Origin: a virus
Strand: one strand, 5' to 3'
Virus record (IMG/VR): IMGVR_UViG_3300050020_000061
Length of the DNA: 64,000 nucleotides
In this document: positions 39,344-58,650 of the stretch, piece by piece
How the letters are laid out: each line of letters starts with the position of its first letter
How positions within the stretch are numbered: position 1 is the first letter of the stretch
Notes under the pieces: model-generated
What the model was told of the DNA's origin: nothing
Database searches by the model: none
Seen by the model: only the letters and a program-made list of their open reading frames with translations
Position numbers and translations under genes: made by a program

Positions 39344-39829
39344 CTACACCATCCGCCACGTCAAACGAAGGTCAACGCCACGGATTGTCGCTCGAGCCAC
39401 TCCGAACCGACGAGCCAGATCGCCTCGCTTGGCCCCCTGTGCCAGCTCGCTCCTGATCTGGAGAACTCCCTCTCGCGTCAACTTCGTCGTCTCGTGACCT
39501 GACCCGCTGGCGATGTAGCCGCGCCGCCGTCCCTTCTCCATCATGTCGCGAGCGTTGTCCTTGGCGGTCCCGAGCCAGAGGTGAGCCGGGTTGCAGCACG
39601 GCGGGTTGTCGCAGTGATGGAGCACGAGCATGCCGATGGGGATGGGGCCGAAGACGATCTCCCACACGTACCGATGGGCACGAACGCAACGCGGGTGGCC
39701 GGGGTTGAACAGGCCGTAGCCCTTGGCGCTTCTGGCCGCCATCCACGGCCAGCACTCGTCAGGCCCCCTGAGTCCGTCTGCCCCGAAGCAGTCAACCTTG
39801 CTCCAGAAGCGTTGCGTTGTTGCCGTCAA
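39344..39829 (-). CDS. HNH homing endonuclease (HNH_3-type) with C-terminal HTH
   Basis: TTG 39829 after GGGAGGAC. ECWPWMAARSAKGYGLF...RAHRYVWEIVFGPIP...VLHHCDNPPCCNPAHLWLGTAKDN. C-terminal HTH RGDLARRFGVARATI. Confidence 0.8.
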   Translation of the reverse strand: MTATTQRFWSKVDCFGADGLRGPDECWPWMAARSAKGYGLFNPGHPRCVRAHRYVWEIVFGPIPIGMLVLHHCDNPPCCNPAHLWLGTAKDNARDMMEKGRRRGYIASGSGHETTKLTREGVLQIRSELAQGAKRGDLARRFGVARATIRGVDLRLTWRMV

Positions 39830-40223
39830 GTGATTGTCCTCCCGGTGCCACCGGGGACACGATAGCACGCGATCCGGGCGTCAAGCTCCCATTCAACACC
39901 CTCTCCGCGAACTTCTCCTTGGGGTAGCCCCTCGCGAAGAGGAAGTGGTACTCCTCGTCCGTCAGCCCTGAGATGGTCATCCACGCCCGCGCTGCCCAGA
40001 ACGGCTCGTCACCCAGTCGGGCGATGCCGATCCAACGCATGGTCGGGCCCAGTACGGGCAGGAGGTCGCGCAGGGCCACGTAGGCCCACTCGCACGGGAT
40101 CTGGTGGGGGTCCTCCCCGAACTCGTGGGCGTAGGCGAAGTCGATAGCCGGGTCGCACGAGATGTACTGCTTGAAGTGGTCAGCGAACTCGGCGAACGTA
40201 CCGAACTCTGGTCCGAACATCAC
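39792..40223 (-). CDS. hypothetical protein (143 aa); its 3' end overlaps the HNH gene start
   Basis: ATGA coupling to the upstream gene. The C-terminal about 25 residues look low-complexity and may be altered by the HNH insertion. Confidence 0.5.
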   Translation of the reverse strand: MMFGPEFGTFAEFADHFKQYISCDPAIDFAYAHEFGEDPHQIPCEWAYVALRDLLPVLGPTMRWIGIARLGDEPFWAARAWMTISGLTDEEYHFLFARGYPKEKFAERVLNGSLTPGSRAIVSPVAPGGQSLDGNNATLLEQG

Positions 40224-44200: not shown

Positions 44201-46685
44201 GCCCCGGCAGGATGATCGCGGCCTTGATCGTGAACGAGCCGGTGGGGTGGGTAGCCTTGACCGCGTCGATGTAGAAGTGCGGGTGCAGCCACATCTCCCA
44301 GTACTGGTCCCAGTACGCGGAGGCGTCGTACTTCTCGGCGCTGATCGTGAAGGACCCGGTCCCCTGACGGCGGCCCTTGATCGCGAAGATCGTGAAGCGG
44401 GACTGCTGGTCAGGGGCGTAGATCACCGCGTTGATGAGGAAGCCGGTGATCCCCGCGCTGATCGTGAAGCTGCCTGTCGGGCGGCGGACGATGGCCGCCC
44501 TCAGGGTGGTCGACCCATACCCGTGGCTCAGGACGAGGGCATCGATCCCGAAGGAGGGCTGGACGAACGCATCGATGGAGAAGCTGCCGGGGATGATGTT
44601 CGAGACGTAGGCATCGATGAAGATCTCGAAGGACCCCGGAATGGAGCCCTTGAAGATGACCGCGTTGATGCGGAAGTAAGGCTTGATGACGGCGTTGATG
44701 GAGAAGCTCGAGGCGATCCCCGAGTTCTTCCACGCATCGATCTTGATGCCACGGTCATCGTGCCGGTAGTAGGTGATGACCTTGGCCGCACGGATCTCGA
44801 AGAACGGCTGGATGTAGGCGTCGACCGTGAAGGTGGCGTAGACCGGGTTCGTGATCCACGAGGCAATGTGGAGGGTTCCAGCCTGAGAACCCGTGACAAT
44901 GGCCCTGATCGAGAAGTAGCCACTGATGAAGGCCCCGACCGTGAAGGAGCCTGTGACCTTGCGGATGATCCATGCGTCGATGGGGATCTCGCACTTGATC
45001 CACGCGTCGACCGTGAAGTGGCGCGGGACGATCCGGGCGTCGATCCTGAAGAACGGCTGGATCCATGCTGCGACCGGGAACGCCGAGACGACGCGGATCT
45101 GCTTGAACGCATCGAGCGTGAAGTCGAAAGCGAAGGTCCAGACGAAGTTGGCGTCGATGGTGAACGTCGGGCTGATGAACGCGTCGATGCTGAAGTGCAG
45201 CGTCGAGGTGTTCCAGTCCTTGTAGGACCCGAGGCCCGTCAGGGACGGCCGGTAGACGTTCCCCTTCGAGGAGTAGACCCGGTAGGAGCCGGGGATGGGG
45301 AAGACGAAGTGCTCACCCGGCGTGGTCGGGATGGAGTACCTGATCGCACCCGTCGAGCTGATGATCCCCAAGTCCCCGCCGTCACTGGGCGGGTTGACCA
45401 CCACCACCACAGCAGGCTTGCCCGCCTCGACAGAGACGGAGGGGGACAGGATGTTGGCCGTCTGCCCGAGGTAGGTGGCGCTCACCCCCGGATAGGCGAG
45501 GGCCTTCTGGGTGGGACCCACCGTCGCGAGGATGACCGCATCGAGCTTGAACTCGAGGCAGATCTCCGCGTTGATGTAGAAGTACGGGTGGATGTAGGCG
45601 TCGATGTAGAAGAACGGGACGTGGAACGCATCGATGCTGAACGACGCCGTCTCCGTCGCCTTCTGGACAGCGTCGACCCTGAAGTAGGGGTGGATGAAGG
45701 CGTCGATGGAGAAGCGCGGCCGAATGACCGCGTCAATGGAGACCGAGCCCGTCTCCGCCCTGAGCTTGATCGCGTCGACCCTGAAGAAGGGCTGGATGAA
45801 GGCGTCGACGAAGAAGACCTGACCGAAGACGGAGTTGATCGTGAACGACCCAGCAGGGGTCGCCTTGATCGTGGCGTCGACGAGGAACTTCTTCGGGACG
45901 AGGAGAGCGGCGATGGAGAACGAGCTGGTGCGCTCCGCCTTCAGGGCAGCCCTGATGCGGATGGCCTGACGTGAGGACTGCACCTGCACGCTGCAGCCGG
46001 GGATGAGTGTCTCGCCCGAGTAAACGACGTAGGTGACCGTGCTCGACGTGAACGAGTCGGTGTCGATGCCCGTGGCTGAGAACGTCCGCGCCCCGACATA
46101 GAAGTCGGACGCGCCGCTGATCTTCAGGACCGAGAGGACGTACTTGCCCGTGGTCGGGGCTTCGTCGACGAAGGACCCGACGGCGTGCCACTGGTAGCCG
46201 CTGGAGTTGTCCCCGTAGTCCCAGCTACTGCCCTGTGGGTCGCTGGTGGCGAGCAGCTCGCCGCTCAGGTTGTCCCGGCGCAGCAGGATGATCTCGTGCT
46301 TGAAGACGGCCACCTGCGAGTGGCTGAACCAGACGTCCCACGAGATGGAGACGGGGACGCCAGTGGCCTCCATCGTCCGCAGGGCGATGGCGTCCAGCGT
46401 GAAGCGCGGCATGATGACCGCGTCGGCGGTGAAGGAGCCAGTCCGCGTGAGGCGGATGACGGCCGCGACCGTGAAGGATCCGCCTCGAGTCGCCTTCAGA
46501 ACCGCGTCGATCTTCGCCCAGCGAGCGATGAATGCGTCGAGGGTCAGGCTCCCCGTCTGGGTGCTTGGACCTCCGCCTGAGACGTCCTGAAACGCATTGG
46601 CCTGATACGCGCTGTCCTGAAAGGCGTGGAGACCGTTGTCGAAGACGGTCGCAGCGAAGACGCCGGGGTCGAAGATGCCGCTCAC
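41253..46685 (-). CDS. giant minor tail protein (1810 aa): N-terminal about 1200 aa is a degenerate F-x-I-D-A repeat array with three globular insertions; the C-terminal about 600 aa is a paralogue of the 46784-48385 tail protein
   Basis: GTG 46685. Example repeats: SFSIDAFISPTFTIDANF, QPFFRIDARIVPRHFTVDAWIKCEIPIDAWI, HPYFRVDAVQKATETASFSIDAFHVPFFYIDAYIHPYFYINAEI. C-terminal matches to the neighbour: VLHGVDxNILFDxL, TTDISxxxNDV, GRxQxAE, IRARS. Confidence 0.8.
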   Translation of the reverse strand: MSGIFDPGVFAATVFDNGLHAFQDSAYQANAFQDVSGGGPSTQTGSLTLDAFIARWAKIDAVLKATRGGSFTVAAVIRLTRTGSFTADAVIMPRFTLDAIALRTMEATGVPVSISWDVWFSHSQVAVFKHEIILLRRDNLSGELLATSDPQGSSWDYGDNSSGYQWHAVGSFVDEAPTTGKYVLSVLKISGASDFYVGARTFSATGIDTDSFTSSTVTYVVYSGETLIPGCSVQVQSSRQAIRIRAALKAERTSSFSIAALLVPKKFLVDATIKATPAGSFTINSVFGQVFFVDAFIQPFFRVDAIKLRAETGSVSIDAVIRPRFSIDAFIHPYFRVDAVQKATETASFSIDAFHVPFFYIDAYIHPYFYINAEICLEFKLDAVILATVGPTQKALAYPGVSATYLGQTANILSPSVSVEAGKPAVVVVVNPPSDGGDLGIISSTGAIRYSIPTTPGEHFVFPIPGSYRVYSSKGNVYRPSLTGLGSYKDWNTSTLHFSIDAFISPTFTIDANFVWTFAFDFTLDAFKQIRVVSAFPVAAWIQPFFRIDARIVPRHFTVDAWIKCEIPIDAWIIRKVTGSFTVGAFISGYFSIRAIVTGSQAGTLHIASWITNPVYATFTVDAYIQPFFEIRAAKVITYYRHDDRGIKIDAWKNSGIASSFSINAVIKPYFRINAVIFKGSIPGSFEIFIDAYVSNIIPGSFSIDAFVQPSFGIDALVLSHGYGSTTLRAAIVRRPTGSFTISAGITGFLINAVIYAPDQQSRFTIFAIKGRRQGTGSFTISAEKYDASAYWDQYWEMWLHPHFYIDAVKATHPTGSFTIKAAIILPGQPITSWFIDAQITSVVRTSFDIEAFISSEHTVVYEGEGEVVRVLHQITERLDFPGRDGIALGTIYPNILFGPFDAVPNLPVVFYIYEMPVGPGRPENDFGLASTNENQWCAPYQSMTGGEWGTSLVPMDNGGWVFTAIPVYSEPKYVYLNNTGTFEPSMIGSAIWSRYRYDDVVISHPAPTIDAWIVGTMGEPITIDAEIVGREKQGAFTLAADVSAQGEKRGSWTLDASIRGREFSFFKIFATIVPQHFTMDAVVWQPCVTIDAYIQPFLTIDAFLVPVQFAGTGSFTIKAWKAYLTPMSQMHIDAEIVSIGDMRGGVSIDAVVSIERVSRFYLAAYICLPPAGFSLDAMVAPWFTVDAWIAPKGGGLGGFTIGAYVRGSSYIIFPGDGGAPTDPFGNPPMLTRKFAVKIEAGFAQPLPQADMDLVASILRQIAALQARLDALLCIPVDERIPAENAAIKDLREQIAWLQKELLVARYQDPSEFWMDATSKMRAYLDTYLAVKDPTDAQQAAYEIDLKTYNYDLMRLRMAREPQKTWVEITGDCIWSGTEFTQMARTGPGTFTITMKGAHNEFVGGEEIHFEIDGLRVFGGFVTDVERGYFFEAAVAPKTVLHGVDYNILFDRLVVRNWPWEFANHHKTGGDAGPYRNWPAFKKGTMDDDMIEYVFKTYLLPDLPMGFDYESGVFPVATPAPESPWVMPDPGSPLRVFMQSVSQITAGVWCIDPYMVLQYHDRATVTAPYPLTDGLGGISSRALSVTTDISQMMNDVLVWGTLGKTVEGEILVTHELGDGHWRERYWLAAVVAQQTYINNILAVPAAKRSVYQKTTLAAHQARIIIYKANLANARAHPEVASFDLYGRWQYAEFRQDIFHQKWLDIRARSILLRYDDPIMMATATVWDPGYQAGQVINVKSSVYGIDINLVIRQLHITFTVAKEPVGEKFYALPQYDLTMGLDPEAPWNIYDFLPYPGMSTPGLGMDVTGA
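43065..46560 (-). repeat. coding tandem-repeat array (about 11-residue / 33-nt period, highly degenerate)
   Basis: GCGTCGATGG / GCATCGATGG / GCGTCGACC strings recur on the plus strand every few tens of nt. On the protein they give h-x-(I/V/L)-(D/N)-A-x-(I/V). Confidence 0.75.
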
Positions 46686-46783: not shown

Positions 46784-48385
46784 TCAGACTGCGTTGGCGT
46801 CCAGATTGTGCCAGACGTGGTACTCGACGTAGACGCTCTTGGCTGCCTTCAAGAGCTGGAAGGTCCCGAGGTCTGGACTGGTCTCGAGGAACCCCGCTCC
46901 ACCCGCGCTCTGCGGGTCGGGCACGCTCGTCAGGCGAAGCCCCTGTGCCACCACCGTCAGGCTGTCGCGGACGTAGGCGTAGGTGAGCTGCCACTTGTTC
47001 CCCGACATCGGGGTGGCCCACTCCTTCACCAGCACCATCGGTGAGGCCACGATGTAGGGGTAGTCAGTTCCGTACTTCGAGCGGTCGATCACGTTGAAGT
47101 TGGGCTGGACGAGGCCCCTCGCCGGGGGACGCTTCAGGGCGAGGAGCAGGCCCCACGGATCCTGCGTGTCGAAGCTGCAGGTGACCCGGTACTCCACCGT
47201 CGTGGGAGTGGGGAAGCTCATGTCGATGGCGCGGACTGGCAGGTTCACCCCGCTCTTCGTCTGCGGACCGAACACCGGGTCGTAGGTGGTGAAGGTGTGG
47301 ACCCCCGAGAAGATGCTCACGATCTGGCCCGGATAGAGACCGTGCTTGTAGATCGTGAACTCGGCCCGCATCGCAGGCACGCCCTCCTGATTGAGGATCT
47401 TGTTCGACCTCGCCCTGATCATCCCCGCCAGCCAGTCGGAGCCCATGGTCTCGGCCCACTGGAAGCGGCCGTACTGGTTGACCGAGGCCGCCAGTGAGTT
47501 GTGGACGTAGAGCAGGAACTCCTGCGTCGACGTTGGAGTCGGGTCGAGAGAGCCGGTGAAGATGATGACGTCGTTCTTGAGGCGGCTGATGTCGGTGGTG
47601 ATCGTGAGGGACTTGCAGGCCACGCTGCCCTCGTTGTCTCCAACGGAGAACGGGGCCCAGTCGGTGTCCTGCTCCTTGTAGACGATGTAGCCCTCGGGGT
47701 CGATGTACCAGATCGAGGACCCCGGCATGCTCCTCAGGATGTTGGCCGAGACGTCGGTGAAGAATGCCCTCAGGGAGGTCCCCGCAGACGGTGGGGTCCA
47801 CGTGGCACCCGTGTCGCCCGTGTTGATGACGGCGACCTCGTCGATCCGGCTGTCAGCGGGGTTGAGCTGGCCCCACTTGATCAGCGGGCTGACCTTGTCG
47901 AGGTCGAAGCTGGTCAGCATCTTGGTGATGTACGCCTTGTCGGTGGTGCCCTTGGGCACCGCCACCACGTAGCCCGAGATCTGGCCGTTGGTGGTCACCT
48001 TCTGGCGCTTGTACCCACCCAGCCCGGTCTTCGGGTTGCTGCCATCGGGATACCACGTGGGCTTGAAGCGGTTGTACAGGTACAGCTTGTCGAACAGGAT
48101 GTTCAGATCGACACCGTGCAGGACCATGCGCGGCTCAGGTGCGTCGGGGAAGACGTAGCCCTGCTCGAGCACGAACAGGTAGCCCCACCACATCCTCACG
48201 CCGTTGATGTAGAGGGCGATCAGATCCCTCCCCGGAGAGAAGGTGTAGAGAGCCCTCAGGGTGACGGTGCAGGACCCCGGCTGGGCTGCAGCCACGGCCT
48301 GAAAGTTGGTTTGGCTGAAGATGACGTCCGCCGTGACATCGGTCGTCCCGACCGTGATCGTGACGACCGCCTCCTCGACGTCCAT
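46784..48385 (-). CDS. minor tail protein (533 aa; distal-tail/hub position directly after the tape measure)
   Basis: I trimmed the start to ATG 48385 (MDVEEAVVTITVGTTD...), overlapping the tape-measure stop by 1 nt. Paralogous to the C-terminus of the 1810-aa protein. Confidence 0.75.
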   Translation of the reverse strand: MDVEEAVVTITVGTTDVTADVIFSQTNFQAVAAAQPGSCTVTLRALYTFSPGRDLIALYINGVRMWWGYLFVLEQGYVFPDAPEPRMVLHGVDLNILFDKLYLYNRFKPTWYPDGSNPKTGLGGYKRQKVTTNGQISGYVVAVPKGTTDKAYITKMLTSFDLDKVSPLIKWGQLNPADSRIDEVAVINTGDTGATWTPPSAGTSLRAFFTDVSANILRSMPGSSIWYIDPEGYIVYKEQDTDWAPFSVGDNEGSVACKSLTITTDISRLKNDVIIFTGSLDPTPTSTQEFLLYVHNSLAASVNQYGRFQWAETMGSDWLAGMIRARSNKILNQEGVPAMRAEFTIYKHGLYPGQIVSIFSGVHTFTTYDPVFGPQTKSGVNLPVRAIDMSFPTPTTVEYRVTCSFDTQDPWGLLLALKRPPARGLVQPNFNVIDRSKYGTDYPYIVASPMVLVKEWATPMSGNKWQLTYAYVRDSLTVVAQGLRLTSVPDPQSAGGAGFLETSPDLGTFQLLKAAKSVYVEYHVWHNLDANAV

Positions 48386-51300
48386 CAGACGGCTGGACCA
48401 CGCAGGCCGAACATCTGGCCCTTGCGAGCGAGGGTCTTCTCTACCTCGGCCGCCACCTGACGCGCCAGATCCGTGATGTCCTGATCGTTGCGAACGGAGG
48501 TCCCTGTGATGTTCACCGTCAGGTTCATCGGGCCCACGCCACCGCCACTGGGAGCGAGAGTGGCGGCTCGCGGGTTGCGGAGGATCGCGACCGCCTCGCT
48601 GCCAGCCTCGCCGATCATGGCGTGGGTCGGCATCGAGGTGATCCCCACTGCACCGGAGGCGATCCCGAAGATGCGCTTGTAGTAGGGGTCCACCCCACCG
48701 GCCTTGGCGAGGCCACCGGGGCCGAGGTGCCACGGGGAGCGAGCGATGGCGTTGAGCTGGGCGTTCGCGCTCTGGCCCACCGTGCCCATGATCCCCGAGT
48801 AGTACGAGCTGGACTTGATCAGGTTCGCGGCTGCGGCAGCGCCTGCCTCAGGGGTCGCGAAGCCAGCAGGCTGGCCCGGACCCTTCATGATCCCGAGGTT
48901 ATTCAGGGGCCCGACCTCGGCCTGCGCCCACTTCCGTGAGGCTTCGACCGTCAGGCCGGTGTTCTTGGCGAGGGCCGCAGCGAACCGATCCAGCCGCTCG
49001 TTCTTGGGGAGGTTGGCCGTGGTCGAGGGAGAGAACGAGGGGGCGGCGACCTTGGGGTTGGCGGCCTTGGGGTTGTCCCCCGGAACCGTCGGGGTGGCGG
49101 CGGCCTGAAGATCCGAGATGGCCTTGGCGAGGGAAGCCACGGACGCGTCAGCGAGGACGACCTTGGGGAAGCTGGTCTGGATGGCCCGCATCCAAGCGTT
49201 GATGTTCGTGTCCGTCAGGGCCACGTCGGTGGGGCCGTTGTTCCCCGTCAGCGGACGAGCGTTGCGGATGATCGCGACGGTCTCGGGGCCAGCCTCGCCC
49301 ACGATCATCTCGGTGGCGTGACCGATGCTGCCGAGGAACCCGGCCGCGTTCTTCTTGCCGCCGCCGCCGCCGCCCGAGGAGACAGGGGCGTAGCCGGGGA
49401 CCACCACGACCGGAGTCCCAGTGGATCCGAACCCGGAGGTCGGTGCCGTCAGGACGGTATTGCCGCTCTTGTCGGTCGTCTTGGTGTAGCCGAGGGCCTC
49501 GTAGACGGCCTTGACCCCGTCCTTCACGGAGCCAGCGAACTGCCCAACACCCTGCGCGGCAGCGGACAGGGCGTCTGACCAGTTGCCCGTGGCCGTCCCG
49601 AGGATGGCGTTCATGCCCGCCACCTTGGTCGCCAAGATCGCCTGCTGCTTGGCGATGTTCTCCTGCGCCGTGATCGCGTAGCCCTCGGCGTTGCGGGCCA
49701 ACTGCATGTTCGTGATGGCCTTGGAGGCGTCGAGAGCGGCACGGTTGGCGTTCTCGTTCCAGATCTTCTGGCCGAGATCGAACTGCTGGGTCGCGATGTT
49801 GAGCTGCTGCTGCTGGATCGAGGCCTTCTGGATCGCCTCGACCTGAGCGAAGTACCGCTCCTCTCCCGTCTGTCCGGGGGCGGAGAACTGGGCCTGAGCC
49901 AGAGCCGTGGTGATGCTGCGCTGCTGGAGCTGCAGGCTCAGGCTCTGGTTCATGATGTCCAACTTGTGGGACATTCCCTGCCAGATGCCGAGCTGGGTGG
50001 CGGTCCCGCTCACGCCGGAGGTGTTCTTGATCCCGGCCCCAGAGATGGCACCGAGGGCGTCCCCCACGGCGCGGCTGGCGAGGCGGATCTGGTTGTCCCA
50101 GTTGAACTGGCTCGCCTCCTGATTGAGCTTGCCCATCTTCGTGGTGAGATCGGCGATCTTCGCCGACGACACGTTCGCCTGAATGGCGAGCACCGCGAAG
50201 TCAGGCAGGGAGGCCGGGTTGAACTGCCCGACCTTCGTGAGCGCCTCGAACAGGCCCTTGCCGGAGATGGCAGCCAACTGGGAGTTGGCGGCGGCCGTGG
50301 ACGCCAGCGACTGCTGGGCCATGCCCGCAGCGGGGCCGGTCAAGCCGGTCGCGGTCGCGCTCGGCCGACCTGTCTCAGCTCCCTTGAAGAACCCGAGGCC
50401 GGGGGCCACCAGAGGCTGCTGGAGCAGGTTCTGGGTCATCTGGAAGGGGATCTCGAGGGCCATGGTGAGCTGCTGCTGGGCCTGACGAGACTGCTGCTGG
50501 GCCTGAAGCTGGCGGATGTTCAACTGGGCCCAGACGCCGGGGTCGACGAGGTTCTTCCCGGCTGCGGTCTGCTCGATGGCGTCCTGATGCTGCTTGATCT
50601 GATCGGCTGCCGTCTTCGAGCTGTCGACGATCTGGCCGTTCACCTTCATGACGATGTTCGACTGCATCGCCAGATTGGCGCTGTACGTGTCGCCAGCCTT
50701 GGTGGCGATGGCGACCGCCTTATCGACCTCGTCCCACGACTTGGCGACTTCCCACGTCACCTTCACGGACTTCTTGCCGGAGACCTCCATGTTCTTCCCG
50801 GCCCGATCAGCGGCAGACCCGAGATCGTTCAGCGCGTTGGTCCGGGCATTCACGTCGATCTGACCCATGCCGATGTTGGCGTCGAACTTCGGGAGCTGGG
50901 CAGCCTTCTGCTCGGGGGTCATCTGGTAGTTGGAGCTGTAGTTGCCTGCCCCGATGGATCCGATCAGCGCCCCGGCGATAGCGCCGATGGCAGTCCCCGG
51001 ACCCGGCAGGATCGAGCCGATGGCCGCCCCTGCCAGAGCGCCACCCACGCCACCAATCGCGGTGCTCGCGCCTACGTCGCCGGGTGTCGCCATCCCGGCC
51101 GCCTTGGCCTTGTAGTCGATGTACGCCTGCTCGTTGGGGCTGGTGACGTAGTTGGCCCCGGTAGCGATCTGGTTGAGGGTCCCGGTGACGCCATTCCCGC
51201 CGGTCTCAGCCTTGCTGTAGCCGCTGAACTGACCGGCAACGGTCTCCATGAAGCCCTTGCCGCCGCCCATCTGCTCGGCGAACAGAGCGGACCCGAGAAC

Positions 51301-54300
51301 GCCTCCGTAGCCCCCGTAGAGGCCCTGAGGCGGCCCTGTCTGGGACCCCATCGAGGCGCGGAAGATGTCGGCCGTCGCCTGCTGGGCCTTCTGCCCCGCC
51401 TTGGCGGTGACGGACGCGTCCAGAGACGTGGAGACGAAGGCGAGCATGTCCTTCGACAGCCCAGCCGTCACGGCAGCCTGAGCCATCGTCGCCTGCATGT
51501 TCCCGTGGGACTCGTAGGTGGCCTGAGCGAGGGCCGAGGTGGCAGCCGTGGACGTCGACCTGAAGCCGGTCATCTGGTCGACGAACTTGCCAGCCGCCTC
51601 CGACCCGGCGTCGATGCCCTTGCTGGCGAGGGACATCGCCATGCCGTAGACCGTGGTGGCACCGATGACCACGCCGAGGTTCCGAATGATGTTGCCCGTG
51701 CTGGGCTGCATCTTGACCGTGGTGGCTCGGAGATCGTCGAACTTCGAGATCACCTTCCCCAGCTCACCGGGGGCCTTCTTGTACTCCTCGATGGACCTCT
51801 TGATCGAGTCCCGCTCCTTGCCACGGGCACCCATCAGGTCGGCCTGAAGGTTGACGTACTTGTTCAGCTCTGGGGCGGTCTCAGGAGTGACGAGGCCAGA
51901 CAACTGGCGCTGCTGGTGCCGCGCCTCGGTCTGAAGCTGGAGCATCTTGCCCCGGCCACCGAGCCCCATGGAGGCGAGCTGGGCGATGCCGCCTCGCGGG
52001 GTGCGCCCCGACATCACCTGCTGCCACGCGCTCGACTCACCCATGATGTCGGCGAGGGTGCCCTTGAACTCCTTGTAGGCATCAGCCTGCTCGGGGGACA
52101 CCGCTGCGCGACGAGCAGCGCCCATGCGTGCCGAGGCTCCCTGCATCCCACGAGGTGCGCGAGGAGCGCGACCACCACCCATGGCGGCCTGCACGTCAGC
52201 GCCCTGCTGCTCGATCCACTCCTGATACGCGCCGGGGTTGTTGAAGCCACCGGCCGGAACGGTCGGTCCAGCGGTCGGCGTGGCCTGAGGGCGATGACGA
52301 GGCGAGACCCTCTCGGTGGGCGGACGCGAAGCCTCGCGGCTCCGCATCAGGGCGTCGTGCTCGCGCTGCCAGACGGGATCACCGAACAGGGCAGGACCGC
52401 TCGTGAGCTGCTCGTCCGTGAACTTCCGGCCGCCTCTGCCGGGGCCAGCCGTGGCGACACTGGGCTGCTTGGCCGCCCTCTGCACGGGGAGGATCAAGCC
52501 AGTGAAAGCCGCCTGCAGCTTCTCGGCGGCGAGCGCCATCTCGTTGATGGGGGCCGCCATCTTGCCTGCGGCCTCGGCGGCCGGAGTCAGGATCGGGCCC
52601 GTGGACACTCCGGCTCCGGGCTTGGTGAGGCCCAGCGATGCCAGAGTGGCGGTCGACGGGGCGAAGGAGGGGCCCGGAGGAGGCGTGCGCGGGATGGCGA
52701 ACATGTTCTGGGGGGTGCGGAGACCACCGTGCAGGGTCTCGAACTCCCTCGCAGCACGCTCCCTGATCTTCTTGTAGGGGTCGACCTTGCTCTGCTGGAA
52801 GGCGGCCTCGAGCGTCTCCCCTCCGTCCTGACGATGGGGCACGAGGTGCATCAGGCGGTTGGGGACGATGATCCCGTCCTCGGGGGGCGCGAACAGGCTG
52901 TTCGGCTTCTGGCCGATCACCTGCATGCCGCCCTGCGCCTTCGGGATCTGGTCCATGACCTTCTTGGGGATCAGGGGCGTCAGGGGCTTGGGGACGAACA
53001 GCTCCCTGCCAATCTCGCCGACGATGTACAGGCCCTTGCCGCCGGGAGACAGTTCCTTCGCGGGAAGGTTGTTCTCGAGCGCACGTCGCACCCATGGCGA
53101 CATGACGGGACCACCGCCCTCGCGACCAGTGAACTTCGCGAAGATCTCGGCTGCCCGCATGCGCTGCGGATCCACCCGCTCGAGCGAGCGGTTGGCCGAG
53201 GCAATCCGGGTGAGCCCGGGGCTCTCGATCAGTCCGCCGATGGCGCGAACTGCCGCCTCCGCGTCGGTGCCGGTGGCACGGAGCCGGAGCTGGTCACCCT
53301 GCCGCGCACCCAGCGCCAGCAGGTGGTGCATGTACTTCGCGTCGACCACGCCGCGCTGCGGCATGCCACGGGTCAGGTTCTCGACGCTGATGAAGGCGTC
53401 GAAATCGGCCGCCATCCTCGCGAGGTGGGCCGAGGGACGCATGTGGAGGCCGAGCTGGTCCGCGACCGTGAAGAGATGGCTGACCGGCCCTCCGCCCTCG
53501 CGGTAGATCTTCGGGGGGAGCTTCGACGTGCGGGCGCGCTTCAACCACTCGGGCTCGAAGGGCTCGACCGGCTTCGGCATCTCGACCTTCGGAGGCTCGG
53601 GCAGGCCGAGGATGCGGCGCTGCAGTGGGCCCAGAACGGGGCCCCCCTCGGCGTGCCCTCCCTTGGTCCAGTTGGTGCCGTAGACGCCGCGCATGTAGTT
53701 CCCGGCCAAGGCCCGAGTCCAACGTCGGGGGTCATTGAGACTCCCCATGGTCTCGTTCCAGCGCCGGTCGCCGACCAGCGTGCCACCCGTGAAGGGAAGA
53801 GGCGCTCCGACGAAGTCCTCGTTCAGGCGGGGAGGTCCGACACGCTCGATACGCTTGGGATTGAAGACACCAGCGCGGTACTGGCGCAGGCGCTCGCGAC
53901 GACGCTCCCAGTCGCGGTTCGGCACGTACCCGCCGCGAGCCTTGTGCTGGTCCGCCTGCTGCTGCCACGCCATGATCGCCATGAAGGGATCGTTGGCCCA
54001 GTCGGCAGCGGTCTGGAACATGGACGAGACGAACCCGGGCTTGGCGATCTGGTTGAGGGGCGGAGTCATGCCCCCCAGAGCAGGGCCACCAGCGGCCCGA
54101 TGGAAGGGGATCTCGAGCCCCGGATGACGCGGGATCGAGATGCCGCGCTGGGTCCTGAGCCAGTCCGTGCCGAGGCCAGCGCCCTTGTGGGCGGCGTTGA
54201 CGTTCGTGTCGAGGCCAGACCAGAGGATGGCCTGAAACTCGCTCAGGTTGTGGAGGTCCCACCGCTTCGCGTACTCGGGGTAGAGATCCTCCATCGCCCC

Positions 54301-57300
54301 GATGCCGAGCTTGCGGATCATGTCGCTCCCGGCGGGAGCCTTCCAGAAGGTCTTGCTGTTCGGGCCGGTGTGGCGACGAGCAGCGGTGATGATCTGGGAC
54401 ATGCGGGAGTCGTAGGTGATGGCGTTCGGATCGAGGCCAGTGATGTTCTGGAACATCGCGCCGCGCTTGGGCCCAGTCGGAGAGCCCTCGCGGCCCATCA
54501 AGAACGCCCATGCGTCCTCGATGGGGCCAAGGCCCCGACCGGCGGAGAAGGACGTCTCGCCGAACCCGGGCACGTTGGAGCTGCCGGAGGTCTGGGGGAC
54601 TCCGGTCTCGAGCAGGTGACGGACGATGGCGCGGTTGGAGCGCCACTCCTGCCCCGACGATGCGGCAGCGAACGCGCCGAGCCCCGACAGGGCATCCATC
54701 CCGAGGGACTGCCAGCTCGTCTTCCCGCCGATGATCGGGTCCATGAGGTCGCCCACGGCCTGCGCGTGAGCGATGGTCCACCAGTCCCGGGCCTCGTTGA
54801 CCACCTCGGGCTTGATCGTCTCGGCGTGGGCACGGATGTTCGCATGGAGATCGCGGGCGTTCTCAGGCAGCCGCATCAGGCCACGGAGGGGGTTCTTGGG
54901 AGTGGAGGATGGCACCACCCAGCCGCCGTCAGCTCGGAGGCCGATGCTGCTGGGGGCGAGGAGAGCGCCGCGAGGGGCGTCGACCGGCGAGCCCGAGAGG
55001 CCCACCAGCTTGTAGTGGCGCTTGCTCTGGGGACCGCTGCTGATCGCGTAGGCGGGCACGGTCTCGAGACCCAGTCGACGAGCCACGGCGAGGCGATGAT
55101 TGCCATCGTCGACCATGGCCGCGTGGTGCGACGGGTCGTAACGCAGGGCGATGGGCTTCTGGATGCCACGCGCCGCGATGTCGCCGGTCAGCTCACCGAG
55201 ATCGGTGGCACCCTGTCCGGTGCGTGGGTACGTCTCCCGGTCCTCGCGGAGCAGGGGCAGCAGAGTCGACAGGCGGACGTTCTCGACCATTCCCCCCGAC
55301 TCGCGCTTGCGGCCAGCCATGATGAGCTGTTGGATCCGCTCGGCGTTGGCGCGCAGCTTGTGGCCGCTGGTCGGGATCTCGTCGAACCGCTTCAGGTCGA
55401 AGAACGCGAGCTGCGCCTTGGCGCGAGCGACCATGTCTGCTTCGCGCTTGCGGCCAAGGACAGCGGCGGGGTCGATGTGGATCTGGCCCTCGTGGAGCCA
55501 CGTGCCGACGTACGGCGGGAAGCTGCCAGCCGCGAGCTGGGACTGCTTCTGGGCGTTGAACTGCTTCAGGAAGTCGCGGAAGTTGTTGGGGTCCTCGACG
55601 AGGTGCGACGTCCCGGTCGCGATGCCGACGGCGTAGCCCTTGGGCGGCTGCGGCCCACCGGAGAGCGGGAAGGTGCCGCCCTCGTTCTCCATCGTGGCCC
55701 GGTAGGCCATGGCCCCGAACCCGGCCTTCTTGATGTTCCGCAGGATCCGCCACGACTCGATCTCGCCAGCAGCGTTGTGGAGCTGCACGGCATAGCCGCG
55801 TCCGACAGGAGCCACGCCCACATACCCGCCCGGGGCGGAGTGGTCCTGATAGTGGTTGATCGTGTCCTGAATGGCGTGGTAGAGCCCCTCGGGACGCGGG
55901 GCGTAGTGGCCCCCGCCACCGGGCAGTCGGCTGATCTCGACCGCGCCACCGCGAGCGCGGAAGCGCACGCCGGGGCGGTCGGGAATGAACTGGTTCTCAC
56001 CGAATGCTGGGGCAGGCTGGGGAACGTGAGCGCGAGGCTGAGTCGAAGGGTTCCATTCCGAGGTGGCAGTCCATGGACCGTTCTCCCCATAGGAGACACG
56101 TCGCATCTGCTCCTGCGGGTCGTTGCGGCGCTGCGCTCGGGTCCGGGCCCTCGTCGGGAGAGGCTGGCCGAACGCAGGAGGCTCACGCCGTGGGGCTCGG
56201 GCGGCTGCAGCCATTTCGATGGGTGACAGCGACGGGCCGGGGAGCGGGGGGACATTGCCCAGCCCACCCCACGGCCTGCCGCCCGCCAGAGTCTCTGGCC
56301 GATGCGCGAACGAGATGTGAGCATCGAGACCGGACTGGGCGAGGAATGGACCGGCCGCCGTGCCGCACGTGGGGCACAGGAGGTTCTGGCTCTGACGGAT
56401 GGCCTGCGCTCGGGCTCGCTGGACAGGATCGTATGTCGTGGGGCCTTGGCCGGATGCTGCCTGCCTGCGCTGGTACTCCAGCGTGTAACGGTCGTACTCT
56501 TCCTCCCGCCGTGCCGTGGACAGGATGCGGGCATCGACGGGCCGGTCCCCGAAGATCTTCCCGAACGGACGATCCTTCTGCGCCCAGAACGCCTTGCCGC
56601 GTGTGAGCTGGACGCTCGAGGGGGCGATGGGCCTGCCGGTGAACCGCTCCGTCTTGACGTAGGCGGCTGTCGCCAGACCCTTCCTGCGGTGCTCGACACC
56701 CGTGATCGAGTAATCAGGGTGGAAGCTCCCTGCGGGAGTGGGGACGCCCCACTGCTCAGGATCTGACCTGTAGCTGAAGGGGAAGGTCGCCGCGACCTTG
56801 TCGCCCTTCATGACGATAGCGACGAGCCCCGCTGCATAGTCCTTGGACAGGATCACGGGCTTCTTGACGGGCTTGAACCCGGGCCCGGGCTTGTCCAGCC
56901 GCCCACCGAAGTTGCGGATGTCGAAGTCGTTGCTCTGGGGGCTGTAGAACTCGATGTGGTAGCCCTTGGGGAGACCACCCTTGTGGGCTGGCCCGCCATG
57001 GGCACGAGCGGAGATGTTCTCTCCACCCTGCAGCTTGGCCGCAAGAAGCTCCAACTGGCGGATCTCGGACTCGCTGTAGCCGCCACGGTTGGCGGCCACA
57101 CGGCGCTTGCCACGCTGCTGGATCTGGTACTCGAGGGCAGCCAGCTCCGCTTCCGCCTTCCGCAGGCGAGCCTGTTCCCTGTGATAGGCGTTGATGTCAG
57201 GCAGAACCATGCCCGATGAACGCGGGCGAATGATCTCAGGCCCGCGCTCCCCCACCAGAACGTCACGTCCCTGCTGAACAGCGCCACCATGGGCCCGGGT

Positions 57301-57738
57301 GGGCAGGTTGTTGCGAACGGCCGTCTCAACGGCTCTGGCAGCCCCTGAGCGCGTTCCAATGGCCGGGGTAGAGACCGCCGAGACCACGCTCTTCGCTTCG
57401 GCCGCGATGGCCTTCGACATCTGCGGAGTGATGGTGATCGGGATGGAGCCGAGGCCCTTGATGATCTGGGCGCGGAGAGAGGCGAGGCTCTCCGCGTTGA
57501 CCGTCAGGGGGACGTTGACAGCCTGCATCTGGGCAGGGGTGCCCCCGGCGACGGCTCGCCCGCCACCGGCTACCTGTGCCCCACCCAGCGCCTTCATCCC
57601 GCCCGCGCCGGAGACGGCCCTCTCGGCAGCGGCCGTGAAGGCATTCATCGACGCGGTCGCCTTATCGGCTCCGCCCGCAAACCCAGAGGCGTCCAGCGTG
57701 AGCCTGACGCCGATGGTCTCGACTTCCGTGTTGCCCAT
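48385..57738 (-). CDS. tape measure protein, 3117 aa, with an N-terminal about 1500-aa array of globular modules
   Basis: It sits between the G/G-T chaperones and the minor tail genes. The C-terminal half is Ala/Gly/Gln-rich and helical, with a glycine-zipper segment and MIVGEAGPETVAIIRN / AMIGEAGSEAVAILRN motifs. The N-terminal half carries the GNAT-like, Zn-finger, ParB-like and HPr-like modules listed separately. No stop or frame break across 9354 nt. Confidence 0.85.
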   Translation of the reverse strand: MGNTEVETIGVRLTLDASGFAGGADKATASMNAFTAAAERAVSGAGGMKALGGAQVAGGGRAVAGGTPAQMQAVNVPLTVNAESLASLRAQIIKGLGSIPITITPQMSKAIAAEAKSVVSAVSTPAIGTRSGAARAVETAVRNNLPTRAHGGAVQQGRDVLVGERGPEIIRPRSSGMVLPDINAYHREQARLRKAEAELAALEYQIQQRGKRRVAANRGGYSESEIRQLELLAAKLQGGENISARAHGGPAHKGGLPKGYHIEFYSPQSNDFDIRNFGGRLDKPGPGFKPVKKPVILSKDYAAGLVAIVMKGDKVAATFPFSYRSDPEQWGVPTPAGSFHPDYSITGVEHRRKGLATAAYVKTERFTGRPIAPSSVQLTRGKAFWAQKDRPFGKIFGDRPVDARILSTARREEEYDRYTLEYQRRQAASGQGPTTYDPVQRARAQAIRQSQNLLCPTCGTAAGPFLAQSGLDAHISFAHRPETLAGGRPWGGLGNVPPLPGPSLSPIEMAAAARAPRREPPAFGQPLPTRARTRAQRRNDPQEQMRRVSYGENGPWTATSEWNPSTQPRAHVPQPAPAFGENQFIPDRPGVRFRARGGAVEISRLPGGGGHYAPRPEGLYHAIQDTINHYQDHSAPGGYVGVAPVGRGYAVQLHNAAGEIESWRILRNIKKAGFGAMAYRATMENEGGTFPLSGGPQPPKGYAVGIATGTSHLVEDPNNFRDFLKQFNAQKQSQLAAGSFPPYVGTWLHEGQIHIDPAAVLGRKREADMVARAKAQLAFFDLKRFDEIPTSGHKLRANAERIQQLIMAGRKRESGGMVENVRLSTLLPLLREDRETYPRTGQGATDLGELTGDIAARGIQKPIALRYDPSHHAAMVDDGNHRLAVARRLGLETVPAYAISSGPQSKRHYKLVGLSGSPVDAPRGALLAPSSIGLRADGGWVVPSSTPKNPLRGLMRLPENARDLHANIRAHAETIKPEVVNEARDWWTIAHAQAVGDLMDPIIGGKTSWQSLGMDALSGLGAFAAASSGQEWRSNRAIVRHLLETGVPQTSGSSNVPGFGETSFSAGRGLGPIEDAWAFLMGREGSPTGPKRGAMFQNITGLDPNAITYDSRMSQIITAARRHTGPNSKTFWKAPAGSDMIRKLGIGAMEDLYPEYAKRWDLHNLSEFQAILWSGLDTNVNAAHKGAGLGTDWLRTQRGISIPRHPGLEIPFHRAAGGPALGGMTPPLNQIAKPGFVSSMFQTAADWANDPFMAIMAWQQQADQHKARGGYVPNRDWERRRERLRQYRAGVFNPKRIERVGPPRLNEDFVGAPLPFTGGTLVGDRRWNETMGSLNDPRRWTRALAGNYMRGVYGTNWTKGGHAEGGPVLGPLQRRILGLPEPPKVEMPKPVEPFEPEWLKRARTSKLPPKIYREGGGPVSHLFTVADQLGLHMRPSAHLARMAADFDAFISVENLTRGMPQRGVVDAKYMHHLLALGARQGDQLRLRATGTDAEAAVRAIGGLIESPGLTRIASANRSLERVDPQRMRAAEIFAKFTGREGGGPVMSPWVRRALENNLPAKELSPGGKGLYIVGEIGRELFVPKPLTPLIPKKVMDQIPKAQGGMQVIGQKPNSLFAPPEDGIIVPNRLMHLVPHRQDGGETLEAAFQQSKVDPYKKIRERAAREFETLHGGLRTPQNMFAIPRTPPPGPSFAPSTATLASLGLTKPGAGVSTGPILTPAAEAAGKMAAPINEMALAAEKLQAAFTGLILPVQRAAKQPSVATAGPGRGGRKFTDEQLTSGPALFGDPVWQREHDALMRSREASRPPTERVSPRHRPQATPTAGPTVPAGGFNNPGAYQEWIEQQGADVQAAMGGGRAPRAPRGMQGASARMGAARRAAVSPEQADAYKEFKGTLADIMGESSAWQQVMSGRTPRGGIAQLASMGLGGRGKMLQLQTEARHQQRQLSGLVTPETAPELNKYVNLQADLMGARGKERDSIKRSIEEYKKAPGELGKVISKFDDLRATTVKMQPSTGNIIRNLGVVIGATTVYGMAMSLASKGIDAGSEAAGKFVDQMTGFRSTSTAATSALAQATYESHGNMQATMAQAAVTAGLSKDMLAFVSTSLDASVTAKAGQKAQQATADIFRASMGSQTGPPQGLYGGYGGVLGSALFAEQMGGGKGFMETVAGQFSGYSKAETGGNGVTGTLNQIATGANYVTSPNEQAYIDYKAKAAGMATPGDVGASTAIGGVGGALAGAAIGSILPGPGTAIGAIAGALIGSIGAGNYSSNYQMTPEQKAAQLPKFDANIGMGQIDVNARTNALNDLGSAADRAGKNMEVSGKKSVKVTWEVAKSWDEVDKAVAIATKAGDTYSANLAMQSNIVMKVNGQIVDSSKTAADQIKQHQDAIEQTAAGKNLVDPGVWAQLNIRQLQAQQQSRQAQQQLTMALEIPFQMTQNLLQQPLVAPGLGFFKGAETGRPSATATGLTGPAAGMAQQSLASTAAANSQLAAISGKGLFEALTKVGQFNPASLPDFAVLAIQANVSSAKIADLTTKMGKLNQEASQFNWDNQIRLASRAVGDALGAISGAGIKNTSGVSGTATQLGIWQGMSHKLDIMNQSLSLQLQQRSITTALAQAQFSAPGQTGEERYFAQVEAIQKASIQQQQLNIATQQFDLGQKIWNENANRAALDASKAITNMQLARNAEGYAITAQENIAKQQAILATKVAGMNAILGTATGNWSDALSAAAQGVGQFAGSVKDGVKAVYEALGYTKTTDKSGNTVLTAPTSGFGSTGTPVVVVPGYAPVSSGGGGGGKKNAAGFLGSIGHATEMIVGEAGPETVAIIRNARPLTGNNGPTDVALTDTNINAWMRAIQTSFPKVVLADASVASLAKAISDLQAAATPTVPGDNPKAANPKVAAPSFSPSTTANLPKNERLDRFAAALAKNTGLTVEASRKWAQAEVGPLNNLGIMKGPGQPAGFATPEAGAAAAANLIKSSSYYSGIMGTVGQSANAQLNAIARSPWHLGPGGLAKAGGVDPYYKRIFGIASGAVGITSMPTHAMIGEAGSEAVAILRNPRAATLAPSGGGVGPMNLTVNITGTSVRNDQDITDLARQVAAEVEKTLARKGQMFGLRGPAV
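53218..53483 (-). other. HPr (PTS phosphocarrier)-like domain inside the tape-measure ORF
   Basis: HLFTVADQLGLHMRPSAHLARMAADFDAFISVENLTRGMPQRGVVDAKYMHHLLALGARQGDQLRLRATGTDAEAAVRAIGGLIE. This aligns by eye along its whole length with E. coli and B. subtilis HPr (GLHxRPA with His15, vdAKS, LG-x3-G, G-x-DE). The Ser46 position is Tyr. Confidence 0.75.
55048..55288 (-). other. ParB/Srx-like nuclease-fold domain inside the tape-measure ORF
   Basis: VENVRLSTLLPLL...GIQKPIALRYDPSHHAAMVDDGNHRLAVARRLGLETVPAYAI. The DGxHRxxAxxxxGxxxVP core is present. Confidence 0.55.
56302..56380 (-). other. C2H2-like zinc finger inside the tape-measure ORF
   Basis: LLCPTCGTAAGPFLAQSGLDAHISFAH. Confidence 0.45.
56551..56964 (-). 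other. GNAT acetyltransferase-like domain inside the tape-measure ORF
   Basis: GYHIEFYSPQSNDF...GLVAIVMKGDKVAATF...ITGVEHRRKGLATAAYVKTERF. The last segment fits GNAT motif A (V-x2-h-RRKG-h-A). Confidence 0.45.
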
Positions 57739-57755: not shown

Positions 57756-58333
57756 CTACACCGCCTCACCCGTGTGAGACTCAGCGTTGAAATCTATGAC
57801 GTCGCCGTCCGTGGGTAGTCTGTCGCCTTCGGTGGCGATGGTGTTTCCCTTCACCCAATCCTCGCGCAAGGCGAGGTAATAGTGAAAAGGGAGGCCAGCT
57901 ACCTCGTGAGGCCATTTCCCGTACTGGCGGGCAATACGGAAGATGAGATCACGAGTGGTCAGGCGTTTCCCTTGGGGGTCTCCTCGGCCTCGTCCGACTC
58001 CGGCTTCTCGACCTTCTTGCCCTCCGGCTCGTCACCGTAGTGCATCTTGTTGACGGTCTGGTTGAGCTTCAGGACCACGCGCATCGGGAGGCTCGAGAGC
58101 GCCTCCGCAGTGAGCTTCGGGTCGAAGGCGCACTTGAGGACCATCATCTTGAGGAGGACGGCGTTGTCGATGCTCTCGACGTCCTCGCCCGTCAGGGGGT
58201 TGGTGGTCTTCTTGGAGGCCTTGGTCACCAGATCGTCGTACTCCCCGATGGAGAGTTCGCGCAGGTGGTAGATGGTGCCACGGATGTTGACCTCCTCCTC
58301 GAGGAAGTCGGGTGTCAGCGTTCGACCGGCCAT
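57756..58333 (-). CDS. tail assembly chaperone frameshift product (gpG-T-like), made by a -1 shift at 57965-57971
   Basis: The -1 frame continues as ...KGN|RLTTRDLIFRIARQYGKWPHEVAGLPFHYYLALREDWVKGNTIATEGDRLPTDGDVIDFNAESHTGEAV to TAG at 57756-57758. This extension is absent from the ORF track because it has no start codon. Confidence 0.7.
57959..58333 (-). CDS. tail assembly chaperone (gpG-like)
   Basis: 124 aa, acidic C-terminus, directly upstream of the tape measure, with a slippery heptamer just before its stop. Confidence 0.75.
   Translation of the reverse strand: MAGRTLTPDFLEEEVNIRGTIYHLRELSIGEYDDLVTKASKKTTNPLTGEDVESIDNAVLLKMMVLKCAFDPKLTAEALSSLPMRVVLKLNQTVNKMHYGDEPEGKKVEKPESDEAEETPKGNA
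57965..57971 (-). promoter_or_regulatory. -1 programmed ribosomal frameshift slippery heptamer G GGA AAC
   Basis: X XXY YYZ in the zero frame (aaG GGA AAC gcc tga). Lambda G-T uses G GGA AAG. Confidence 0.7.
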
Positions 58334-58650
58334 ATCGTCACCTTCTCTATCAGTAGGCTCCGGCCTTCGCGCACCGTTCGCGAGTCGTCGGCCAACTCGA
58401 GCCTGTACTGCTTGTGGGGATTGAGGTTGAGGACAAAGACCTTGTCGTATTCAGGGTCGTTCCACAACGCATCGCTCAGAAATGAGAAGACGGCGTGGAG
58501 ATCGTAGAAGCCCGCTTCCGGGCCTTGATCCCCACGCCGCTGAAGAGTCCACGACTGCAGTTCCCCAACCTTCGCTCCAAGGAAGGGAACTTCTACGGTT
58601 CCGGCGGGCTTGAAGATCCCTGACCGGATGGTCTTGAACAGATAACCCAT
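58315..58650 (-). CDS. hypothetical tail-module protein (111 aa)
   Basis: ATG 58650 after AAAGGGA. Lies between the tube genes and the chaperone. Confidence 0.55.
   Translation of the reverse strand: MGYLFKTIRSGIFKPAGTVEVPFLGAKVGELQSWTLQRRGDQGPEAGFYDLHAVFSFLSDALWNDPEYDKVFVLNLNPHKQYRLELADDSRTVREGRSLLIEKVTIWPVER

Follow-up and report, generated by a model that had tools for sequence, protein, structure and literature searches.

What should a phage ruler protein be doing with an enzyme chain in its N-terminal half? This question is raised by an open reading frame (ORF) of 3117 codons (48385..57738, minus strand) in the viral record IMGVR_UViG_3300050020_000061 of IMG/VR, of which a stretch of 64,000 nucleotides, referred to below as the window, was analysed. 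The phage is uncultured and is known from metagenomes. From its gene position and its C-terminal motif the giant protein is classed as a tape measure, and sequence comparisons support the view that its N-terminal half is a chain of autonomous enzyme-like and regulator-like modules. Every boundary between these modules carries a short peptide, R-[A/M]-x-G-G-P-V, which is, in sequence, the one mapped cleavage site of a tape measure, that of pb2 of phage T5. With this match, what looked like a single giant multidomain protein becomes a probable polyprotein. We propose that the product is a tape-measure polyprotein that would be cleaved at the junctions and expelled ahead of the DNA; the cleavage, the packaging, the delivery and the effector roles are what we infer, and we give this proposal as a whole about an even chance of being correct.

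The junction peptide and the cleavage site of T5 pb2

In the N-terminal part of the protein 10 strict copies of the junction motif were found, where 1.0 was expected from shuffling (maximum 5), and the last 1400 amino acids (aa) contained 0. A similar N-terminal enrichment was seen in 14/14 relatives. With the pattern [R/K/H]↓[A/E/Q]-x-G-G-x-x, in which the arrow stands between P1 and P1', 12 junction sites were located in the span 52813..57297 (this and all other parts of the giant gene lie on the minus strand), with P1 at aa 148, 245, 594, 812, 935, 1214, 1266, 1362, 1413, 1539, 1600 and 1636. The site at aa 148 belongs to a first full composite motif (TR↓AHGGAVQQGRDVLVGERGPEIIRP, aa 146-175, 57214..57303), and a second one (GR↓EGGGPV ... 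LYIVGEIGRELFVP, aa 1537-1582, 52993..53130) closes the cargo stretch. The original prediction, made from the sequence alone, had described a cargo bracketed by copies of a short motif that is also present near the C-terminus; both the bracketing and the copies were recovered, the latter as GExGxE at aa 163, 1574, 2814 and 3043.

The residues preceding the two glycines are under clear constraint. When 91 GGP[V/I/T] sites were collected from 27 family proteins, with no prior on basic residues, position -3 was occupied by R 59 times, by K 10 times and by H 4 times (background frequency of R, 7.6%), and position -2 was A or M in 56. The codons vary among the 12 sites of the query, which indicates a constraint at the level of the peptide; DNA microhomology was for this reason rejected as the cause of the motif. 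Exchange of modules was seen to take place exactly at the two glycines: the query and the relative P0001 read ...IMAGRKRESGG/MVENV (the slash marks the point of the swap) and continue with the ParB module, and the counterpart in P0003 reads ...IMAGRKRESGG/PISRSFTVADPMGLHIRPS and continues with HPr. At the edges of the two domains that were modelled, B and D (see below), the junction sites fall into segments of low pLDDT (predicted local distance difference test), which are presumably disordered. Large proteins that share GNAT or ParB modules with the family and are not tape measures were without the junction motif. Single-linkage clustering of the junction-delimited segments ran together into one cluster and was rejected.

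The first junction copy sits within the longer motif TRAHGGAVQQGRDVLVGERGPEIIRP, a composite of the form R-A-x-G-G...VGE.GPE, and a tblastn search with this motif returned 359 phage records. Among the matches listed, most were under genes annotated as tape measure or, in T5-like Vibrio phages, as 'pore-forming tail tip protein', and a few were under 'hypothetical protein'. Seven ordinary tape measures were inspected (Caulobacter Kronos, Vibrio Ceto, T5, Roseobacter CRP-701, Vibrio jenny, Salmonella W5 and Pelagibacter HTVC026P), 6 of which came from the tblastn list. In 7/7 a hydrophobic or Gly-rich stretch preceded the composite motif, and the distance from the motif to the C-terminus was 75-100 aa; Arg was present at position -3 in 6/7. 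The T5 protein reads ...FVPR(1127)AEGGMMYPGVSYQMGEHGTEVVTP, that is, R1127 is followed by AEGGM, and it is after R1127 that the maturation cleavage of pb2 was mapped by mass spectrometry coupled to liquid chromatography (LC-ESI-TOF-MS), the C-terminal fragment being retained in the tail (Linares et al. 2023, PMC10038345). The T5 site lies in a disordered stretch and has Arg at P1, with Ala following at P1' and Gly-Gly at P3'-P4'; these features recur in the 12 sites of the query, with variation at P1 (R/K/H) and at P1' (A/E/Q). An adenain- or ubiquitin-like reading of the junctions, with a cut after GG, was dropped in favour of the Arg cut mapped in T5.

According to a 2025 study of Ur-lambda, tape-measure cleavage is known only for T5 and lambda, and the lambda site is unknown (PMC12617516). 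Lambda gpH (L011) has two ATGG[F/Y] elements that look like the T5-type site: the one at aa 734 belongs to FHFATGGFTG, ~120 aa before the C-end, and the one at aa 779 to RGYATGGYVG, ~75 aa before it; the first copy has no Arg at the P1 equivalent. By their position these elements are compatible with a ~14-kDa C-terminal fragment, although we do not claim this as shown.

Cargo modules and their shuffling among relatives

The protein begins with a leader (aa 1-148, 57295..57738) that is conserved in most of the family members bearing an N-terminus (BLASTP/phmmer). It is followed, up to aa 1640, by modules in the order GNAT, zinc-finger-like element, a module of ~75 aa, module B, ParB, module D, two short conserved peptides and HPr. 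The original prediction had listed a GNAT-like module, a C2H2-like finger, two unrecognised modules, a ParB/Srx-like and an HPr-like module; this list was essentially right, except that module D, one of the 'unrecognised' ones, lies after ParB and before HPr.

The best defined of these is HPr (aa 1414-1510, 53209..53499), which starts 3 residues past a junction. Judged by sequence, the identity of aa 1422-1505 as HPr is certain: PF00381 was matched with a Pfam E value of 3e-18 (4e-20 for a tile), the scores being 66-72 bits where the cut-off is 23, and matches were also obtained with NCBIfam HPr models and with HPr chains in the PDB. His15 and Arg17 are retained (GLHMRPS aligned with GLHARPA of solved HPr structures), and the position of the regulatory Ser46 is occupied by Tyr (AKY vs AKS). 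For the ParB/Srx-like module (aa 813-935, 54934..55302), which has the sequence DDGNHR, the match of aa 835-896 to ParB_N (PF02195) reached 22.3 bits and was under the cut-off of 26.3; of nine stand-alone homologues, five have a ParB_N match with E<=0.001. The mini-GNAT-like module (aa 290-410, 56509..56871; HRRKGLATAAY ... FWAQKDRPFGK) had no direct Pfam match. Many homologues of aa 344-399 came up in an exhaustive phmmer search of 1.84 billion representatives; Acetyltransf_1 is matched by 12 of the 15 that were sampled. The form R-x-x-G-x-A of the acetyl-CoA motif A is kept (RRKGLA), and when a family profile of the module was compared with the PDB, the best match was the GNAT 3dsb (E=0.0047), which stood among spurious nuclease matches. 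Through their homologues, the ParB/Srx and GNAT identities are weakly to moderately supported.

The zinc-finger-like element (C455-x2-C-x15-H-x4-H, aa 455-481, 56296..56376) keeps all four Cys and His ligands in 5/5 sequences, namely the query and the four relatives holding the region. It had no profile match in Pfam, and its spacing is atypical for C2H2 (C-x2-4-C-x12-H-x3-5-H). The next module, of ~75 aa (aa 594-669, 55732..55959), also occurs as stand-alone proteins of 76-145 aa. Module B (phrog_17808, aa 668-812, ~145 aa, 55303..55737) is common as a stand-alone protein of 112-140 aa. Since the stand-alone homologues came out misaligned when aa 590-815 were aligned as a whole, module B was modelled by itself; the AF2 model had a pLDDT of 90.8, and Foldseek found no significant match to it in the PDB (best E=0.17, eIF4E-like noise).

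Module D (aa 936-1214, ~280 aa, 54097..54933) is DUF7178-like and is the commonest cargo in the family. The query module had no direct match to the Pfam family DUF7178 (PF23802), and its stretch aa 956-1274 can be aligned, with 27-28% identity, with the regions of P0002, P0004 and P0010 that carry DUF7178. In its AF2 model the core had a pLDDT >90. Foldseek gave no significant match in the PDB (best E=0.72), and in the viral library BFVD the structure matched stand-alone phage proteins of ~200 aa; domains with this fold were also found in proteins that bear the names 'Large polyvalent protein associated domain' and 'ART-PolyVal-like'. The first of the two short peptides, of 52 aa, lies between two junction sites (aa 1215-1266, 53941..54096) and contains FQTAADWANDPFMAIMAWQ, a highly conserved sequence seen again in many members of the family. 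The second, of 51 aa (aa 1363-1413, 53500..53652; GPLQRR...EPEWLKRAR...PPKIYR), is present in at least 9 relatives and duplicated in P0003, and junction sites are always found at its bounds. Searches of Pfam, NCBIfam and PHROGs suggested no function for module B, module D, the ~75-aa module or an insert near the C-terminus (see below).

A collection clustered at 90% identity contained 14 giant relatives of 2150-3325 aa, and the exhaustive search yielded ~27 more-or-less complete representatives at 50% identity (~2000-3360 aa), all metagenomic. The regions of the query shared across the family are aa 1-215, 1567-1640 and 1900-3117. Between them the cargo varies in content and order, and its length differs by >1000 aa among relatives with similar ruler cores. 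Pfam searches of 18 relatives detected DUF7178 in 10, HPr in 2, GNAT in 2 and a SprT-like domain in 1; P0003 has two HPr copies. The cargo modules also exist as small stand-alone phage proteins, and GNAT and ParB modules are, in addition, part of large multidomain phage proteins other than tape measures. These observations bear out the modular nature that had been ascribed to the N-terminal half. Relatives free of cargo were not found; as the word-index search was saturated, both with the low-complexity C-terminal half (3 hits) and with the N-terminal 215 aa (2 hits, both fragments), their absence is not established.

Searches of GenBank phages at the DNA and protein level with the whole ORF or its halves gave nothing but one 45-aa match to the GNAT motif, in a gene of Tunturiibacter phage Tunturi_5 annotated as 'MutT/NUDIX hydrolase'. 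Nine proteins of 1.6-2.5 thousand aa that are not tape measures (P0030, P0033, P0034, P0036, P0039, P0052, P0053, P0069 and P0073) carry 3-4 tandem copies of a mini-GNAT of ~110 aa (HRRKGLAxAxY ... LWxQPNRPFGK), and two of them, P0033 and P0052, have a NUDIX-box-like sequence near the N-terminus, which probably accounts for the Tunturi_5 match. In a scan of GTDB genomes, relatives were found on only two contigs of metagenome-assembled genomes (MAGs), one assigned to Acidimicrobiales and one from a 'Thermotogae' bin. The latter contig, L007 (CAYHBG010000001.1, 76,653 bp), binned in an 'uncultured Thermotogae' MAG, encodes a full-length relative of the giant tape measure and, as it agrees in size with the phage genomes of this group, is probably a mis-binned phage.

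Processing and delivery: proposed course and alternatives

In the envisaged course of events, the giant protein would act as three parts: a leader of ~150 aa, a cargo of ~1500 aa and a conventional tape measure of ~1480 aa, the latter consisting of linker, glycine-zipper ruler and C-terminal tip-binding motifs. The whole chain would be loaded into the lumen of the tail tube via the normal chaperone-dependent pathway and would be cut in place, at the junctions, by the activity responsible for the maturation of ordinary tape measures. Predicted to be released are, among others, an HPr product of ~14 kDa (aa 1414-1539) and two modules, ParB (aa 813-935) and D (aa 936-1214). As the tape measure exits the tail, the freed modules would be expelled ahead of the DNA, and in the new host the GNAT could acetylate, the ParB/Srx module could act on DNA or in an NTP-dependent manner, and HPr with its phosphorylatable His15 could interfere with signalling by the phosphotransferase system (PTS). 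Only the C-terminal ~1480 aa would serve as ruler and membrane conduit.

Several points weigh against the polyprotein proposal. The catalyst of tape-measure cleavage in T5 and lambda is reported to be unknown (PMC12617516). The downstream VGE.GPE half of the composite motif is present at only two cargo junctions, and the internal sites may stay uncut if the full motif or the context of the tail tip is needed. The Pro after GG and the varied P1' residue (A, M, E or Q) make the junctions predicted substrates only. In the query itself the GNAT, ParB and zinc-finger assignments are under the curated thresholds. No curated tape-measure family of Pfam or NCBIfam (PhageMin_Tail, TIGR01760 and similar) matches the C-terminal half, and the PHROGs scan did not find one either; from the original prediction that this half looks like a tape measure, the Ala/Gly/Gln-rich composition was confirmed, whereas support from a curated model was not obtained. 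There is also the matter of space, since 3-6 copies of a folded cargo of ~1500 aa would have to be accommodated in a lumen ~4 nm wide; by a rough estimate of volume, the fit is feasible only with modules that are staggered or partly unfolded.

In a broader form, which is possible but in our judgement falls short of being probable, the protein would be a programmable cassette for the injection of multiple effectors: whatever small domain stood between two R↓AxGGPV sites would undergo loading, release and delivery before the genome, the R↓AxGGPV-type motif would be a general maturation site of many siphophage tape measures (T5, perhaps lambda), and the injected HPr would give the phage a new route for taking over PTS and carbon signalling of the host upon entry. 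The maturation activity would then be universal, and might be catalysed by the lumen or be autocatalytic.

The polyprotein proposal has to be compared with the possibility that the giant multidomain tape measure stays uncleaved, the cargo acting in tethered form as in polyvalent proteins that classically escape processing, such as the virion RNA polymerase of phage N4. The junctions, inherited by duplication of the C-terminal tape-measure motif, would in this case be flexible hinges, sites that bind a gpG-like chaperone or sites for docking to the tube. The lack of the VGE.GPE half of the T5-type motif at most junctions would agree with this, some polyvalent proteins (see below) are delivered unprocessed (PMC5512222), and a role as linker could by itself explain why the motif marks the boundaries of recombination. 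Such a hinge would not, however, need the constraint observed for R at position -3 and for A/M at -2, and at P1 and P1' the junctions agree with the cut that was mapped in T5. Moreover, HPr starts merely 3 residues past its junction, so that a cut there would leave a near-native N-terminus. Taking these points into account, we regard a permanently uncleaved chain as rather unlikely.

A polyprotein could also be a strategy of expression, with the cargo released in the producing cell to act late and the C-terminal ~1480 aa alone entering the tail. All canonical sites are upstream of aa 1640, a tape measure of conventional length is left after the last of them, and no globular domain would have to fit into the lumen. 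What makes this course improbable is that the N-terminal 150 aa are conserved in most relatives, like a functional end of a tape measure, and that cleavage in T5 and lambda takes place in or after tail assembly, the fragments remaining in the particle (PMC10038345, PMC12617516). In addition, GNAT and ParB cargo is typical of injected polyvalent proteins, and proteins acting late in the cytoplasm would have no evident need of fusion to a tape measure.

If all 3117 residues measured, with the modules as extended structural filler, the tail would be ~470 nm long (~0.15 nm x 3117 residues). In the siphophages studied, tail length scales with the length of the tape measure, and the family is uniformly long (~2000-3360 aa). 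Nevertheless, we consider a full-length ruler very improbable, as modules B and D are modelled as compact globular domains (pLDDT 90.8, and >90 for the core of D), the folds of HPr, GNAT and ParB are likewise globular, stand-alone proteins made of the same modules exist, and the cargo varies by >1000 aa among relatives with similar cores.

All these interpretations assume an intact reading frame. The ORF starts with ATG, preceded at 8 nt by a GAGG Shine-Dalgarno-like sequence, and of the three codon positions the third had the highest GC content (GC3, range 0.73-0.92) in 15/15 windows of 600 nt, which indicates that the frame is coding from end to end. Three further contigs with lengths of 60-76 kb (Logan SRR35911453, JGI 3300037087 and Logan SRR11568929) encode the same 3117-aa protein, each with 0 mismatches over 9354 nt, and a partial contig (JGI 3300037356), which starts within the gene, is identical over the last 4320 nt. 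The samples are possibly related, but the assemblies are independent (different pipelines), and the identity of their DNA makes a missed frameshift very unlikely; the single uninterrupted frame of the original prediction is in this way upheld. An identical protein of 1439 aa, considered as a separate C-terminal ORF, was rejected as such because it is a truncation at a contig end. Even if the data are solely metagenomic and the four contigs may share related samples, it is hardly credible that misassembly or a sequencing error joined an upstream gene to the tape measure, given the absence of mismatches among assemblies from different pipelines, the unbroken GC3 signal, dozens of divergent relatives with the same unbroken architecture and the explanation of the lone 'short' copy by its contig end.

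The proposed polyprotein shares with pb2 (TMPpb2 / pb2C) of T5 a hydrophobic or Gly-rich stretch that is followed by R↓A-x-G-G ... G-E-x-G-x-E. In pb2, a protein of 1219 aa, the enzyme domain follows the site, and there is one site and one C-terminal muralytic domain, directed to the periplasm, whereas the giant protein has ~12 sites and ~8 N-terminal modules of cytoplasmic type (HPr, GNAT, ParB); beyond the motif there is no detectable sequence similarity between the two. In its overall logic the giant protein can also be likened to the MARTX toxins, in which shuffled effectors of a giant secreted chain are freed at conserved sites between the domains after delivery. MARTX toxins differ in being unrelated in sequence, in having a cysteine protease domain of their own and in crossing eukaryotic membranes; the vehicle here would be a phage tail.

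Functional domains inside a tape measure are not without precedent, since peptidoglycan hydrolase motifs are embedded in the tape measures of mycobacteriophage TM4, phiIPLA35 and SPbeta, where infection takes these domains into the envelope (as cited in PMC12617516). Those proteins, in contrast, combine a single cell-wall-directed domain with a ruler of normal length, and no such domain was detected in the query by Pfam or PDB searches.

A further likeness is to the polyvalent proteins (Iyer et al. 2017, PMC5512222), large products of late genes with unrelated effector-type domains and rampant shuffling, among whose listed hub and cargo domains are GNAT and ParB, and for which injection with the DNA and processing into units have been proposed. 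The giant protein, too, has GNAT-like and ParB/Srx-like modules, unknown domains (comparable to the many 'LPD' unknowns there) and shuffled modules, and its delivery may be inferred from the expulsion of tape measures. The resemblance to polyvalent proteins suggested in the original prediction was thus strengthened, also by the presence of the module D fold in polyvalent-associated proteins. The two differ in the carrier, which is MuF/head or a type IV secretion system (T4SS) for polyvalent proteins and would be the tape measure here. They differ as well in the proposed device of processing: a zincin-like metallopeptidase (MPTase) is embedded in ~36% of polyvalent proteins (PMC5512222), whereas a conserved junction peptide would have this role in the giant protein. 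In Pfam searches no MPTase was detected in the query, and the SprT-like domain was confined to 1 of the 18 relatives. The survey of polyvalent proteins mentions neither tape measures nor HPr (PMC5512222), and in the literature on tape measures with GNAT, ParB, HPr, polyprotein or DUF7178 no prior description was found, so that, as had been suspected, the combination of modules is apparently undescribed.

The giant protein would thus combine a cleavable tape measure of the T5 pb2 type with shuffled cargo of the polyvalent type. If this is true, the tail lumen, via the tape measure, joins capsid internal proteins and MuF-linked polyvalent proteins as a route for pre-loading host-directed proteins, and HPr is added to the known phage-delivered cargo. 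With ~12 natural copies per protein of an apparent tape-measure maturation site, the conserved R↓AxGG consensus opens the question of tape-measure maturation to direct mutagenesis in T5 or lambda, and shuffling at exact boundaries suggests a natural rule for engineering phages to deliver chosen proteins. A tape measure loaded with HPr, GNAT and ParB and shuffled at exact boundaries would surprise specialists.

The C-terminal half and the genome context

The cargo is followed by an Ala/Pro-rich linker, delimited by composition (aa 1641-1900, 52039..52818), and by the conserved tape-measure core (aa 1901-2810, 49309..52038), which is rich in Ala, Gly and Gln and poor in Pro (3% vs 9% in the cargo). 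The glycine-zipper segment that had been noted in this half was found at aa 2227-2265 (50944-51060), with a subthreshold match to Pfam Gly-zipper_Omp (16.7 bits). Between two copies of VGEAGxExVAIxRNP (aa 2814 and 3043) lies the C-terminal insert of ~205 aa (aa 2831-3035, 48634..49248), which had no Pfam or PDB match and, among the 27 relatives compared, was present in P0001, P0002 and P0011 only. It occupies the place of the muralytic pb2C domain in T5. The protein ends with the last copy of the composite motif, in the canonical tip-proximal position, and a conserved C-terminal tail (…SRKGQMFGLRGPAV; aa 3036-3117, 48388..48633).

The window is a permuted siphophage genome of ~75 kb. On the minus strand it encodes the portal (1881-3248), the large terminase (3702-5186) and the major head protein (62345-63688), and the order on this strand is major head protein, HK97-gp10-like protein, tail completion protein gp17, major tail protein, chaperone pair and giant ORF. 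The putative tail assembly chaperone pair consists of overlapping small ORFs (111 + 124 aa; 57959..58650, minus; phrog_344, E=7e-4) upstream of the giant ORF, and proteins of 533, 1810 and 343 aa are encoded downstream of it. The tape-measure position assumed for the giant ORF, between tail assembly chaperone(s) and distal tail or tip genes, is therefore correct, and the relatives P0003 and P0012 occupy the same position in their contigs. The 1810-aa protein, encoded two genes downstream of the tape measure (41253-46685, minus), is presumably a tail tip or fibre protein; it had no match in Pfam, PHROGs or NCBIfam. Directly downstream of the tail genes there is a gene with an HNH_3 endonuclease domain (39344-39868, minus; Pfam, matching a gene of L002), and L003 has a second HNH_3 gene slightly further along.

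The middle of the window holds a replication and recombination block with ERF, AEP primase, AAA_25 helicase and PD-(D/E)XK nuclease. The primase (28467-29417, plus) has a match to PF22548, the AEP domain known from the 'TOTE conflict system', and a 446-aa protein (15112-16452, plus) ends in DUF6011. Just past the end of the window, upstream of the capsid gene, a 551-aa protein contains an S78 prohead protease domain (L002:2390-4045). Further upstream in L002 (region L002:175-1455) there are a short LAGLIDADG-like ORF, whose score did not reach the Pfam cut-off, and a GT4 glycosyltransferase, for which the 'GT4-conflict' family is a further match.

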